The notes under the pieces were generated by a model that had not been told where the DNA came from, did no database searches, and saw only the letters and a list, made by a program, of their open reading frames with translations. Source: Escherichia phage Ecwhy_1. Taken from it: DNA of 64,000 nucleotides. Positions 22,167 to 26,774 of this stretch are shown piece by piece. Both the position numbers and the translations under genes were made by a program. Location: sequence record MH791411.1, one strand, 5' to 3'. Positions within the stretch are counted from its first letter, which is position 1. Each line of letters opens with the position of its first letter.

Positions 22167-22373
22167 TTACTTCCTATATATAAGCATTAACATATAGTAG
22201 TACTGATTATGCTGTACATTCTCTTTAATATTATAAGGGTCTATAGCAATCTCGGTACATCTGTTAAATGCATATCTATTAAATGCCAGTACTATTATAG
22301 ATCTAATCCATGCTTGGTCAGTCGGTGGTAGTTTACTTATATAGTACTCTTTATAGTTTTTTATGTTCTGCAT
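22167..22373 (-). CDS. small paralog family member (68 aa)
   Basis: Tandem family; N-terminal (K/E)EYY motif, hydrophobic C-terminus. Confidence 0.55.
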   Translation of the reverse strand: MQNIKNYKEYYISKLPPTDQAWIRSIIVLAFNRYAFNRCTEIAIDPYNIKENVQHNQYYYMLMLIYRK

Positions 22374-22384
22374 AGTATACCTTA

Positions 22385-22576
22385 TTATTTCAAAGTACCA
22401 TATAGTACTCTTAATAGGAAGTAGTACGTATTAGAGATATCATTAGTAGTTAAAACAATCTTTGTACACATATTAAATTCGTATTGAGTCATTGCCAGGG
22501 GGATTAAATTGTTAACCCATGCTTGTTCGTTTTCTTTTAGTTTACTTATATAGAAATCTTTATGTTCTTTATTCAT
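22385..22576 (-). CDS. small paralog family member (63 aa)
   Basis: Tandem family; MNKEHKDFY start. Confidence 0.55.
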   Translation of the reverse strand: MNKEHKDFYISKLKENEQAWVNNLIPLAMTQYEFNMCTKIVLTTNDISNTYYFLLRVLYGTLK

Positions 22577-22778
22577 ATAGGAATAGTATACCTATGATGC
22601 CGGAGTACATATTAGTACTGTTATTATTGTCGTTTGCGTTTAAAGTCATTTGAATACAATTATTGTAGCATACTCTGCCGAAATAAGTATCAGTACTTAA
22701 AGGTGCTGTAGTCCTTAGAAACATTTGTTCTGTGGGGCTGAGGTGTTTGGAGTAGAATTCTTTATGTTCTTTATTCAT
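22569..22778 (-). CDS. small paralog family member (69 aa)
   Basis: Tandem family; near-duplicate of 23152-23358. Confidence 0.55.
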   Translation of the reverse strand: MNKEHKEFYSKHLSPTEQMFLRTTAPLSTDTYFGRVCYNNCIQMTLNANDNNNSTNMYSGIIGILFLYE

Positions 22779-22783
22779 ATTAG

Positions 22784-22969
22784 TTAGTGTCTGTATATAA
22801 GTAATAGTAAGAATACGTACTGCACCTGTTCATCTTTAGTATTGAGTACTGTACGTATTGCGTCATGGAACAAGAATATAGTACTTGGGTCATTAGAATT
22901 TAAGGGGTTTACGGGGACGGCGTGTTTGTAGTTCCCTTTAACAAATTGTGTGTAGTATTCTCTATGCAT
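22784..22969 (-). CDS. small paralog family member (61 aa)
   Basis: Tandem family; MHREYYTQF start. Confidence 0.55.
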   Translation of the reverse strand: MHREYYTQFVKGNYKHAVPVNPLNSNDPSTIFLFHDAIRTVLNTKDEQVQYVFLLLLIYRH

Positions 22970-22970
22970 A

Positions 22971-23159
22971 TCAGTACCTATATATTAGGGCGAGAATGTA
23001 GTACAGTTTATATGTATTATAATCTGGGTTGATAGCACATAGTGTGTGGTAGTGGAATTGTTTGGTATTTTTCTTATCCTTGATATCTATTGGGTTTAGT
23101 GGTATAAGCATTTGGGAGTTTAGTTCCAGATGGTTTAAGTAGAATTCTTTGTTATTCAT
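22971..23159 (-). CDS. small paralog family member (62 aa)
   Basis: Tandem family; C-terminus LALIYRY. Confidence 0.55.
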   Translation of the reverse strand: MNNKEFYLNHLELNSQMLIPLNPIDIKDKKNTKQFHYHTLCAINPDYNTYKLYYILALIYRY

Positions 23160-23358
23160 AGAAGAATATTAGTCCCATTACGCCTGAGTACTGAATATTT
23201 TTGTTATTGTTTTCTAAAGCTTCTAGAGTAATACGTATACAATTATTAAAGCAATCTCTGGCGTGTGGTGTATCTAAACTTAAAGGTGATACACTCCTTA
23301 GAAACATTTGTTCTGATGCACTGAGGTGTTTGGTGTAAAATTCTTTCTGTTCGTTCAT
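23152..23358 (-). CDS. small paralog family member (68 aa)
   Basis: Tandem family. Confidence 0.55.
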   Translation of the reverse strand: MNEQKEFYTKHLSASEQMFLRSVSPLSLDTPHARDCFNNCIRITLEALENNNKNIQYSGVMGLIFFYE

Positions 23359-23368
23359 ATTGGCCTCT

Positions 23369-23557
23369 TTAGTACACGAAAGCTAGGTACAGGGTATGAT
23401 ACAGTACTCGATGATAGCTATCAAAATCTAGTATACATGCTTTAGTGCACATAGTAAAGTACACTTTATCGTTTTGAGCATTGATACCGCGAGGTTTATC
23501 TAATAGATTAGTACTGAGGTACATTGGGAAATATTTTGTGTAGTATTCTTTATGCAT
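23369..23557 (-). CDS. small paralog family member (62 aa)
   Basis: Trimmed to MHKEYY start. Confidence 0.5.
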   Translation of the reverse strand: MHKEYYTKYFPMYLSTNLLDKPRGINAQNDKVYFTMCTKACILDFDSYHRVLYHTLYLAFVY

Positions 23558-23558
23558 A

Positions 23559-23747
23559 TTAGTACCTGAATATAAGTAGGATAGTGTTATATAATTGGTC
23601 ATAGCTACTACTATTTTCTATACTGCGTTCTATGCAATTATTGAATCCCAGTACTGCCAAATCGTTATCCAGGGGGACTTTATATCTGGCGTAGTGTTCA
23701 AAAATACTGGGGAGAAATTGTGTGTAGTATTCTTTGTGGTTGTTCAT
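23559..23747 (-). CDS. small paralog family member (62 aa)
   Basis: Tandem family; MNNHKEYY start. Confidence 0.55.
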   Translation of the reverse strand: MNNHKEYYTQFLPSIFEHYARYKVPLDNDLAVLGFNNCIERSIENSSSYDQLYNTILLIFRY

Positions 23748-23748
23748 A

Positions 23749-24973: not shown

Positions 24974-25162
24974 TTACATAGAGATGAGTTTCAGTACATC
25001 AATATACATATAACGTTCAGATGACATTACACGGGTAGTGATAATCTCAATCGATATATTTTTAATTCCATGTGCAGATGATTGATGGTGCTGAATAAAT
25101 GAGTTGTGCATACTTTGTTCTATGTGGTTTAGTTTATTGAAGTAGTACTCAAAAGTGTTCAT
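24974..25162 (-). CDS. small paralog family member (62 aa)
   Basis: MNTFEYY start; C-terminus VLKLISM. Confidence 0.55.
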   Translation of the reverse strand: MNTFEYYFNKLNHIEQSMHNSFIQHHQSSAHGIKNISIEIITTRVMSSERYMYIDVLKLISM

Positions 25163-25169
25163 GTCTACC

Positions 25170-25349
25170 TTAGATTGAGATTAGTTTAAGTACTTCTCTG
25201 TACGTGTACTTTTCGTTTTGTGCTTCTACTGTACATGATAGTAGGTATCGTTTTTTATCTCTTTTGTTCCCGACTGTGTAGTACCTTTGGAATTTATTAT
25301 AGTTGTATCTATCTTTGTGCTGGAGGTTATAGATATAGAATTCTTGCAT
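25170..25349 (-). CDS. small paralog family member (59 aa, not in track)
   Basis: MQEFYIYN start; C-terminus REVLKLISI. Confidence 0.45.
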   Translation of the reverse strand: MQEFYIYNLQHKDRYNYNKFQRYYTVGNKRDKKRYLLSCTVEAQNEKYTYREVLKLISI

Positions 25350-25357
25350 AGAGTACC

Positions 25358-25543
25358 TTATATTGCTATCAGTTTGAGTACTTCAATATATGTGCGGTAC
25401 TCTGCTTTAATTAAATTTGTACACACTGTAAGGGAATTTCTTTGTATAAGTTTATTGCCGCTTTTATACGCATTTCTCCACACATAGAGATGAGATCTTT
25501 CAGGCATAGATAGTTTATTTGTATAGTACTCAAATGTATTCAT
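25358..25543 (-). CDS. small paralog family member (61 aa)
   Basis: MNTFEYY start. Confidence 0.55.
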   Translation of the reverse strand: MNTFEYYTNKLSMPERSHLYVWRNAYKSGNKLIQRNSLTVCTNLIKAEYRTYIEVLKLIAI

Positions 25544-25551
25544 ATATTACC

Positions 25552-25755
25552 TCAAATAGAGATTAGTTTAAGTACTTCTCTGTATGTGTACTTTTCGTTT
25601 TGTGCATCTCTTGTGCTTGTATATAGGTATCCTCGACGATATTTGTTGCTCCCGTTCTTGTAGTTGAATTCGAACTTATTGTAGATGAATCTATCGCCAG
25701 GCTGTAATTTACTTAAGTACAATTCAATGCTCATAGTATTCTCTTTACATATCAA
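25552..25755 (-). CDS. small paralog family member (67 aa; start may be internal MSIELY)
   Basis: C-terminus REVLKLISI. Confidence 0.5.
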   Translation of the reverse strand: MICKENTMSIELYLSKLQPGDRFIYNKFEFNYKNGSNKYRRGYLYTSTRDAQNEKYTYREVLKLISI

Positions 25756-25930
25756 TAAGTTTCAGTACTGCTCTGTACGTGTACTTAGTTGTTAGTGCTT
25801 CTTTTATAGCAATACAGAAGTAATGTTGTTTGTCTCTTATACTACCGCGTTTGTAGTACCATACATTGGAGTTGTGGGTGTACTTGTCCCTGTCGGATAG
25901 ATTTAGGTAATAGTATAATATATGATTCAT
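25745..25930 (-). CDS. small paralog family member (61 aa)
   Basis: C-terminus RAVLKLIDM. Confidence 0.55.
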   Translation of the reverse strand: MNHILYYYLNLSDRDKYTHNSNVWYYKRGSIRDKQHYFCIAIKEALTTKYTYRAVLKLIDM

Positions 25931-26139
25931 GGTAATGTAATTAGCCTTATTATGTTAAAGTACTCGGTCCCTGGTACACCTTGTAGAATATTATCAACTA
26001 CATTTTCTTGGTGCAGGATTAATACATTCGGTGCGGTTCTTTTAAGGTTTTTTAAAGTACTGTATTCTTGTTTAAGGATGAACTGTACATCTTTAGGGAG
26101 AATATCTAAGTAGTACTGGTGTATGTTCATAGTTTTCAT
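25927..26139 (-). CDS. small paralog family member (70 aa)
   Basis: MKTMNIHQYY start. Confidence 0.55.
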   Translation of the reverse strand: MKTMNIHQYYLDILPKDVQFILKQEYSTLKNLKRTAPNVLILHQENVVDNILQGVPGTEYFNIIRLITLP

Positions 26140-26150
26140 ATAGTACTCTT

Positions 26151-26336
26151 TTAGAACTTAAAGATGAGGTTCATGATAGATAAGTACTTAGTTTCAGGAA
26201 ATTGATGTTCTATTGCATAACGTGTCTCCAGTCTGAAGTCAAATTTATAAAAGGGACTATTCATATCCATAGGTTCATTGGGAAATGAATCTCTGTATTG
26301 TTTGTGCAGCTTACTACAGTAGAATTCTTTATACAT
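26151..26336 (-). CDS. small paralog family member (61 aa)
   Basis: MYKEFY start. Confidence 0.55.
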   Translation of the reverse strand: MYKEFYCSKLHKQYRDSFPNEPMDMNSPFYKFDFRLETRYAIEHQFPETKYLSIMNLIFKF

Positions 26337-26337
26337 A

Positions 26338-26550
26338 TTAGTGCTCGATTAAAAGGGTTAGGATGTAATAGTATTGCATACTTTCTACCCCTTGTACAGC
26401 ATTTCTTATTTTATTATTCCTGTACGAGTTCAAGAGTTTAGGACAATGTTTGAAGTTTATATAATTATTTTGTGTATACAGTAGGCTTTCTCGTAGACCT
26501 TTTGTTGGTAGTGCATCGATGTAGTACTGTTCAATGTTCATAGTGTTCAT
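26338..26550 (-). CDS. small paralog family member (70 aa)
   Basis: MNTMNIEQYY start. Confidence 0.55.
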   Translation of the reverse strand: MNTMNIEQYYIDALPTKGLRESLLYTQNNYINFKHCPKLLNSYRNNKIRNAVQGVESMQYYYILTLLIEH

Positions 26551-26774
26551 AGAGCTACCAGTACTAAGATTTTTGATAATTGTTTGTTTCTATCCCCGCA
26601 GATGTTGTTGTGTAAAATGCTCACTACAAGGGTATCAAGTGCATTGTTCAGCATAAGGTTACATCCAGTACTGTTATATTTTTTTAGCTCAATTAGCCAC
26701 GAACAATCCGCGAGAAATTTCCCGTACTCTAGTTCATTTAGCGTATTAATGTAGTACTTAAGTGTAGTTGTCAT
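26547..26774 (-). CDS. small paralog family member (75 aa), first gene of the leftward operon
   Basis: SD AAGGAG; TTGACA-N17-TACTAT at about 26810-26840. Confidence 0.55.
   Translation of the reverse strand: MTTTLKYYINTLNELEYGKFLADCSWLIELKKYNSTGCNLMLNNALDTLVVSILHNNICGDRNKQLSKILVLVAL

Follow-up and report, generated by a model that had tools for sequence, protein, structure and literature searches.

Positions 22167-26774 on the minus strand of Escherichia phage Ecwhy_1 (sequence record MH791411.1) hold a leftward array of small open reading frames (ORFs), which is the subject of this analysis. Positions refer to the 64,000-nucleotide (nt) stretch of that record that we analyzed, hereafter the window. 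A first-pass annotation, made from the letters of the window, had described the array as a tightly packed and diversifying operon of about 21 paralogous proteins, 59-77 amino acids (aa) long. Its coordinates and leftward direction hold, far beyond chance. The count of 21 genes also stands, but not all are paralogs, since the array consists of 20 consecutive small ORFs and one unrelated ORF of 219 aa (Table 1).

The genes lie back-to-back, as had been described, with intergenic gaps that span -8 to +11 nt. All start codons are ATG, and coding sequence takes up about 98% of the span. When starts are chosen by family alignment together with the annotation of the related phage WPEC5, the small genes encode 57-75 aa, which corrects the range given earlier. 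Two ORFs that read as 77 and 78 aa have their true starts at internal ATGs (23557 and 24122), as in the WPEC5 annotation. Several genes have a Shine-Dalgarno sequence built partly from the upstream stop codon (taaggt); the remaining genes have none and must therefore rely on translational coupling. With one promoter, gaps of this size and conserved expression signals, the single-operon architecture is retained.

The 20 small proteins form one family, with a single borderline member. Their alignment bears out the common motif that had been noticed, giving the consensus xxxKEYYxxxL...F..CT...YY..L.LI..Y, in which exactly one Tyr is invariant. A profile of all 20 recovers only those 20 in a six-frame translation of the 64-kilobase (kb) window, the next best hit having an E value of 0.1. 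Because a full-set profile would be circular, each member was also searched with a profile built without that member. These leave-one-out profiles recognize 19 of the 20 (E from 6e-16 to 1.2e-3); gene A is not recognized (E = 4.9), and its hhalign probability of 7% covers the C-terminal 16 columns only. Mean identity between paralogs is 28%. Members further apart in the array share less identity (Spearman -0.35, p = 8e-7), the pattern that tandem duplication would leave. The pairs previously called near-duplicates are less alike than that term implies: the genes at 22569 and 23152 share 60% identity, and those at 24974 and 25358 only 39%.

The first-pass annotation did not recognize the family, and the databases add little beyond a label. 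Eleven of the 20 members match phrog_11711 of PHROGs v4, a group of unknown function, at E <= 0.01 (best 1.9e-27), and the other nine join only via the profile built in this analysis. The SHEFM2K annotation likewise tags several members as phrog_11711. This group thus covers the family in part, leaving the basic “VLKLISI” and “QGV” subtypes outside, and carries no functional information; Pfam, NCBIfam, PADLOC and PDB give nothing else. The profile search that had been proposed as a check was run in two forms. Exhaustive comparison with 1.84 billion representative proteins returns 28 clusters, all of 59-69 aa and family-like, and word-indexed searches, one of them with a 52-sequence profile, return only Asteriusvirus-type phages and short metagenome contigs. 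The family is restricted to Asteriusvirus-type phages.

Table 1. Features of the array and its flanks, in order of transcription (pLDDT, predicted local distance difference test; dN/dS, ratio of nonsynonymous to synonymous substitution rates)
Feature	Coordinates	Strand	Description	Support or remark
Promoter	26800..26828	-	Sigma-70-type, TTGACA-tcctt-TCAGTACTG-gtg-TACTAT	Class TTGACA-N8-CAGTACTG-TATAAT; -35 hexamer invariant in 9 phages
Leader	26775..26799	-	Shine-Dalgarno taaggag 7 nt before first ATG	Conserved in 9 phages
Gene A	26547..26774	-	75 aa, first gene of the operon, borderline member	Present in all genomes examined
Gene B	26338..26550	-	70 aa, “QGV” subtype, 4-nt overlap with A	Leave-one-out E = 1.2e-3; hhalign probability 70%, full length
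Gene C	26151..26336	-	61 aa, family member	Leave-one-out E = 5.8e-6
Gene D	25927..26139	-	70 aa, “QGV” subtype, missing in some phages	Profile and orthogroups
Gene E	25745..25930	-	61 aa, basic “VLKLI” subtype	Profile
Gene F	25552..25734	-	60 aa, basic “VLKLISI” subtype	Start is ATG 25734, not TTG 25755
Gene G	25358..25543	-	61 aa, basic subtype, variable cassette	Orthogroups and profile
Gene H	25170..25349	-	59 aa, basic subtype, variable cassette	Orthogroups and profile
Gene I	24974..25162	-	62 aa, variable cassette	Orthogroups and profile
Gene J	24786..24965	-	59 aa, core cassette	Orthogroups and profile
219-aa gene	24115..24774	-	phrog_29152 (function unknown), fixed place in the operon	Non-member by profile
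Gene K	23949..24122	-	57 aa, start 24122, 8-nt overlap with 219-aa gene	WPEC5-type start
Gene L	23749..23940	-	63 aa, “LIYKY” subtype, protein modeled	AlphaFold pLDDT 89.6
Gene M	23559..23747	-	62 aa, most constrained member	dN/dS 0.02-0.03
Gene N	23369..23557	-	62 aa, start 23557	dN/dS ~0.1
Gene O	23152..23358	-	68 aa, “GLIFFYE” subtype	Other array position in other phages
Gene P	22971..23159	-	62 aa	Profile
Gene Q	22784..22969	-	61 aa	Profile
Gene R	22569..22778	-	69 aa, closest paralog is gene O (60% identity)	Pairwise identity
Gene S	22385..22576	-	63 aa	Window-type phages only
Gene T	22167..22373	-	68 aa, last gene	dN/dS ~1.0-1.7, few substitutions
Structured tail	21844..22166	-	Non-coding, terminator-like hairpin 21863-21844 at inner edge of the repeat	Terminator scan, conservation, RNA fold

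Structure prediction, also proposed earlier as a check, yields a small bundle of helices at high confidence, for which fold searches give no informative match. The AlphaFold2 model of gene L, made with a 42-sequence family alignment, is compact (predicted template modeling score, 0.74; pLDDT in Table 1), with predicted helices at residues 2-10, 14-17, 30-45 and 49-62 and a loop at residues 18-29. Across the family, Tyr and His are 1.9-fold enriched and Gly is reduced to 0.24-fold; isoelectric points (pI) range from 5.5 to 9.6, and the four members of subfamily E-H are strongly basic (+4.5 to +5.6). The maximum 19-residue Kyte-Doolittle mean is 1.13, with 19 of 20 members at or below 0.95 and a usual cut-off of 1.6. 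By hydropathy, no transmembrane segment is found among the 20 members, and the products are predicted to be soluble. The hydrophobic C-terminal 8-10 residues (VLKLISI, LLLIYRY) might instead recommend small membrane- or envelope-acting proteins, serving superinfection exclusion or lysis timing. We regard this as highly improbable, given a hydropathy maximum under the cut-off, an N terminus that does not resemble a signal peptide and a C-terminal helix that packs into the predicted bundle.

The phage that carries the array is an Asteriusvirus-type jumbo coliphage. Over the 4.8-kb region it is 99.2% identical to EC.P1, 98.8% to WPEC5 and 98.6% to fEgEco12, and the region is carried by 35 public phage records, 31 from Escherichia and 4 from Salmonella. 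The direct terminal repeat of fEgEco12 measures 20,993 base pairs (bp), as restriction digests confirm (PMC13070987), and that of Sharanji 20,668 bp; repeats in these phages are about 21 kb long. Because the inner boundary in fEgEco12 (PMC13070987) maps over to about 21,864 in the window, the end of the array is placed about 300 bp from the repeat. The array therefore adjoins the repeat rather than lying within it, and its transcription is directed towards it. On the other flank, about 12 RCC1-like paralogs (~360-415 aa) occupy 26,881-42,136 on the plus strand, two of which are among the virion proteins of phAPEC6 (PMC7247149). The window contains no tRNAs, and an Rfam scan of it finds no known RNA.

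Around the inner end of the repeat, some 1.7 kb (20,400-22,160) contain hardly any ORFs. This segment has many TCAGTACTGA sites, degenerate 8/16/24/32-bp tandem repeats at 20,958-21,056 (unit TAGCCGTC, ~12 copies) and short ATGATTACAT repeats at 22,006-22,043. Over the whole window, CTAG, GATC, AGCT and TCGA occur at 0.45-0.64 of their expected frequency, and GCGC is wholly missing (0, with 67 expected by base composition), which suggests strong avoidance of a target for a GCGC-specific enzyme or modification.

The single TTGACA-N17-TACTAT promoter reported by the first-pass annotation is found at 26828..26800. As for internal promoters, of which that annotation saw none, promoter-like matches between 20500 and 27500, a stretch that includes the array, number 26, no more than in shuffles (31.9 expected). 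The consensus -35 hexamer, the near-consensus -10 hexamer and the taaggag upstream of the array are all conserved in nine phages, in which the promoter and a ~140-nt block directly 3′ of the last gene are likewise kept. The first terminator-like hairpins lie downstream of the array, at 21863-21844 and 21342-21309, and the terminator scan finds none before 21863. On the minus strand, RNA from 21,830-22,170 folds at -102.9 kcal/mol, as opposed to -70.6 kcal/mol for shuffles (z = -6.6). This tail could be a structure of the 3′ untranslated region or a DNA signal for end formation. Its hairpin sits exactly at the mapped boundary of the terminal repeat.

The promoter belongs to a class that recurs through the window. 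A palindrome core, CAGTACTG, occurs 68 times where 0.7 would be expected (~97-fold), its full form being TCAGTACTGA. The related TCAGTACTG has 65 matches on both strands, compared with 0.5 in shuffles, and AGTACT is enriched 13-fold. Sites of CAGTACTG are densest between 15,000 and 22,000; examples lie at 3715, 8129, 16582, 21499, 26828 and 50976. The core occupies the spacer of a consensus promoter, TTGACA-N8-CAGTACTG-TATAAT, at 16 sites in the window; the repeat part (1-21.5 kb) contains 13 of these, and the array promoter is another. From sequence, these look like a phage-specific class of early promoters or an operator for a regulator; a literature search on the motif returned nothing relevant. 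Four promoters of this class, at 9756, 16148(+), 18730 and 20707(+), are followed by a common sequence, acatcaagacgagaac...cccaYMGGGTGC, and by no obvious gene start. This shared sequence may represent small non-coding transcripts, although Rfam gives no match. Downstream of the promoters at 3715, 8129, 8750, 16582 and 50976, a ggggagaa...ttctcccc hairpin precedes the Shine-Dalgarno sequence.

Such an enrichment, extending to the operon’s own promoter, raises the possibility that the array products are phage-directed regulators or nucleic-acid binders: small helical proteins rich in Tyr, Lys and Arg that would time gene expression by binding DNA or RNA of the phage, for example at the abundant AGTACT/CAGTACTG sites. 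The four strongly basic members and the richness of the family in Tyr and His would fit such a role. However, charge is not conserved over the family’s wide pI range, no DNA-binding fold appears among the matches, and 20 variable paralogs whose presence differs between near-identical phages fit a conserved site badly. We therefore consider a regulatory role improbable.

Codon usage separates the array from its RCC1-like neighbors. The array uses TAC, CAC and TTC at fractions of 0.62, 0.59 and 0.61; for the virion-associated RCC1 genes the corresponding values are 0.23, 0.26 and 0.32. More generally, C-ending Tyr, His and Phe codons are preferred (0.51-0.70) in the array, the 219-aa gene and the repeat-side ORFs, and T-ending codons (C-ending 0.23-0.38) in the RCC1 array and the ORFs at 42-64 kb. 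As a result of these two classes, the GC skew flips at 22 kb though the coding strand changes only at 26.8 kb. The C-ending codons are those favored in highly expressed E. coli genes, and such a bias would be suited to genes whose translation precedes the appearance of phage tRNAs. The related phage CBB has clusters of RpoD-type promoters on short ORFs beside or within the terminal repeat, and its authors suspect that these ORFs are early host-takeover genes (PMC5259590). On the combined basis of promoter class, host-like codon usage and a position next to the repeat, we group the array with the presumed early genes of the direct terminal repeat; the sigma-70-like promoter and the codon bias suggest early expression. 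A T4-late-type TATAAATA found before the neighboring RCC1 gene is limited to the window and WPEC5, and for this reason it was not used as evidence on timing.

A virion location would place the array differently. On this account the products would be injected internal head proteins, the N terminus acting as a capsid-targeting sequence and the variable bodies being packaged and ejected with the DNA to block host nucleases. The model is the T-even internal proteins, diverse anti-defense proteins that have only an N-terminal targeting peptide in common. The conserved N-terminal decapeptide of the family and the hypervariability of the locus recommend it, as does the proximity of RCC1-like genes that encode virion proteins; the T4 sequence MKTYQEFIAE, moreover, has some likeness to MNTFEYY and MNNHKEYY. 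Yet the promoter and codon usage side with the repeat-side genes and not with the virion genes, an (L/I)xE protease motif occurs within the first 25 residues of only 4 of 20 members and at varying positions, and the N-terminal helix with the invariant Tyr belongs to the confidently predicted bundle. The virion table of phAPEC6 lists the neighbors gp549 and gp551 and none of gp540c-548c, and that proteome did detect a protein of 4.7 kDa but no array member (PMC7247149). These absences are to be read with the state of annotation: 8 of 18 members are annotated in phAPEC6 (1529-5751), 17 of 20 in fEgEco12 and 14 of 19 in SP27, and proteomic searches on such annotations could not detect members left uncalled. 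Considering both sides, we judge an internal-protein role decidedly improbable.

Between related phages the array changes by whole genes. Eight genomes carry 17-21 members each, falling into 25 orthogroups, of which 13 are universal; over the ten related genomes compared, copies per genome number 15-21. The differences are presence or absence of entire cassettes, and cassette O stands at another position in some genomes. In-frame conservation in related genomes, whose lack the first-pass annotation had named as refuting its claim, holds in all ten: every member is intact and in frame, except one in Salmonella phage SD-6_S16. The array of that phage (1991-5446) has 15 members, one of them cut to 42 aa by an in-frame deletion in the loop, and its 219-aa gene survives as 120 aa and some fragments; the other members of this array share 90-100% identity with their coliphage counterparts. 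The DNA of Asteriusvirus JNE01 is 91% identical to the window up to 22,104 and again on the RCC1 side, whereas the array itself aligns in just two short stretches (70-73%). JNE01 has the same layout (RCC1 genes, then a divergent promoter, the array including a 224-aa gene, and the repeat), with 16 members that are 31-61% identical to their best window counterparts.

Selection was measured on orthologs by the Nei-Gojobori method, comparing the window with four divergent phages (dS 0.17-0.24). Pooled dN/dS is 0.40-0.43, with M lowest (0.02) and T highest (about 1 or more). The small ORFs are thus genes that encode proteins, and purifying selection on them is moderate. Region by region, the ratio is 0.31 in the N-terminal helix, 0.56 in the loop, 0.45 in helix 3 and 0.37 in helix 4. 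Positive selection on orthologs was considered and rejected, since the ratio is below 1 in every region, the variable loop included. The earlier description of the array as diversifying thus holds in one sense and fails in another: the locus is a hotspot of diversity, as the orthogroup counts and the nearly unalignable JNE01 array attest, but positive selection is not supported. Its diversity is due to turnover of cassettes and old divergence between paralogs.

These patterns bear on a further alternative, that tandem duplication produced the array and that it now has little or no function, being a relaxed nursery of largely dispensable genes in the early region. Similarity between paralogs falls with distance, single members are lost or shortened in phages that are still viable, and member T has a ratio near 1; the authors of the phAPEC6 study regard tandem duplication as a route of jumbo-genome growth. 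Set against this are the pooled dN/dS of 0.4 and the much lower values of M and N (0.02-0.1). Frameshifts and premature stops are absent from all members in the ten genomes, the only disruption being one in-frame deletion, and 13 orthogroups are universal in eight genomes. The conserved promoter, Shine-Dalgarno sequence, coupling and C-ending codons also argue for selection on expression. We find an array devoid of function quite unlikely.

The 219-aa gene stands apart from the family by profile, as the first-pass annotation had stated. A model in which it is a family member with a large insertion, probed by joining its N- and C-terminal ends, was rejected: the joined sequence ranks top of 64 ORFs, but with 9.5 bits as opposed to 8.4. 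The gene is kept at the same place in related phages, in shortened form in the Salmonella phage, and its homologs are confined to Asteriusvirus. It has no match in Pfam or PDB, its dN/dS (0.40-0.43) equals that of the pooled small genes, and its AlphaFold model is unusable (pLDDT 49.6). An ORF of 216 aa on the minus strand (40,284-40,934), which breaks the RCC1-like array, is collinear with it and weakly similar (E = 0.003). Both ORFs open with a family-like N terminus (MNKRSKFYQEYF; HSKQYLKHF).

The reading we favor, and think about as apt to be right as wrong, is that the array is an early accessory operon, driven by host RNA polymerase, of small host-protein binders that serve takeover or counter-defense. 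Host sigma-70 RNA polymerase would start at 26828-26800 and read leftward through one polycistronic early operon; the 21 genes would be translationally coupled, and the transcript would end in the structured tail at the edge of the 21-kb repeat. The twenty soluble products, each of about 60 residues, would combine a conserved hydrophobic core, made of the N-terminal KEYY helix, the F..CT helix and the C-terminal Y..L.LI helix, with a variable loop and surface. They would bind host proteins stoichiometrically right after infection, for host takeover or neutralization of defense, different paralogs covering different targets or target variants. Tandem duplication, loss and recombinational cassette exchange between co-infecting relatives, rather than fast point substitution, would renew the repertoire. 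The early-type promoter, the host-like codons, the adjacency to the repeat and the dispensability of single members indirectly favor a takeover or counter-defense role. The sequence data establish the gene structure, the relationship of the members, their confinement to one phage genus, in-frame conservation under purifying selection, the turnover of cassettes, the promoter class and the codon bias, alongside a confident helical model; early timing, translation and binding to host proteins, like the role itself, are inferred.

Several points weigh against this proposal. Many early phage genes serve roles unrelated to defense, and a promoter and codon bias that suggest early expression do not prove it. 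The literature yielded nothing on early transcription or transcriptomes of Asteriusvirus, and no data on transcripts, proteins or phenotypes of the members came to light. The family has no meaningful match among the sequence profiles of Pfam, NCBIfam, PADLOC and PDB. Foldseek finds nothing in PDB and only family members in BFVD, and thus no fold relative of known function; the structure prediction covers one member, gene L. With ortholog dN/dS below 1 everywhere, there is no signature of an arms race at the level of substitutions.

A more specific version of the proposal, which we rate as unlikely, treats the array as a repertoire of mini-binders: 15-21 co-expressed variants of a three-helix scaffold, differing in a variable loop and helix surface and reshuffled as cassettes, that would neutralize many different host proteins, whether of defense or of housekeeping, at once from a single early operon. 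If true, this would be a combinatorial, library-like form of counter-defense, unlike the usual collections of unrelated inhibitors. Small early gene clusters near genome ends are where phages keep takeover and counter-defense tools, but known examples mix unrelated genes. What is unusual here is that a single mini-protein fold accounts for 19-20 of the 21 genes of an operon and is exchanged as cassettes among phages otherwise ~91-99% identical. A keyword search of the literature on phAPEC6, fEgEco12, Sharanji and CBB found no mention of the array; what those papers say of the RCC1 array and of tandem duplication is general. If members bind host proteins, the array would offer a natural panel of variants on one scaffold for target mapping, possibly including new inhibitors of E. 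coli or Salmonella defenses, and a tractable case of repertoire diversification in phages. It would also give a role to a family annotated as “hypothetical” or left uncalled, and would be a candidate host-range determinant for jumbo phages considered for therapy.

Among known systems, genes 37-60 of phage SPO1 offer a close parallel in setting. They number about two dozen, are mostly small and early, and lie at the terminal redundancy; their operons have strong promoters of host type and strong ribosome-binding sites, and for most products no relatives are known (PMC6873191). The SPO1 genes, however, are mutually unrelated, lie inside the repeat and have several promoters, whereas the array holds 19-20 paralogs behind one promoter, just outside the repeat. 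The array products have no sequence homology to proteins of SPO1- or T5-type modules, their homologs all coming from Asteriusvirus-type phages or contigs. Comparable regions are formed by pre-early genes in T5 and by terminal-repeat genes in Staphylococcus Kayvirus, with RpoD-type promoters concentrated on short hypothetical ORFs beside or inside a long terminal repeat (~20 kb) and a suspected part in host takeover. A similar early region in the Rak2-like phage CBB carries RpoD-type promoters on short hypothetical ORFs at a long (~20 kb) terminal repeat (PMC5259590). The CBB, T5 and Kayvirus regions are described as mixtures of unrelated ORFs, in contrast to a tandem family of 15-21 copies, and CBB proteins are absent among the homologs of the family in both profile and word-indexed searches.

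Clusters of anti-CRISPR and other anti-defense genes share with the array small, lineage-restricted proteins of fast turnover and no detectable homologs, encoded side by side and, for the array presumably, co-transcribed early. Unlike the array, they do not normally consist of 20 paralogs of one fold. No aca-like helix-turn-helix gene is found in the operon (the 219-aa gene has no Pfam or PDB match, and no member gives a helix-turn-helix match), and no homology of array members to known defense inhibitors is found in PADLOC, Pfam or PDB. The T-even internal proteins (IPI, IPII, IPIII and their polymorphic relatives) resemble the array as hypervariable small proteins with a conserved N-terminal decapeptide, and one of them, IPI*, counters a host restriction nuclease (PMC3012670). 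The array products differ in having no conserved protease site, in being absent from the phAPEC6 virion table, in an N terminus predicted to form part of the fold and in an early-type promoter. We do not assign the array to the SPO1-type modules or to the T-even loci, because homology is lacking and defining features of theirs are not found. By our analysis it belongs to neither class, and appears closest to terminal-repeat takeover modules such as SPO1 genes 37-60 in function and to the T-even internal-protein loci in its mode of evolution.

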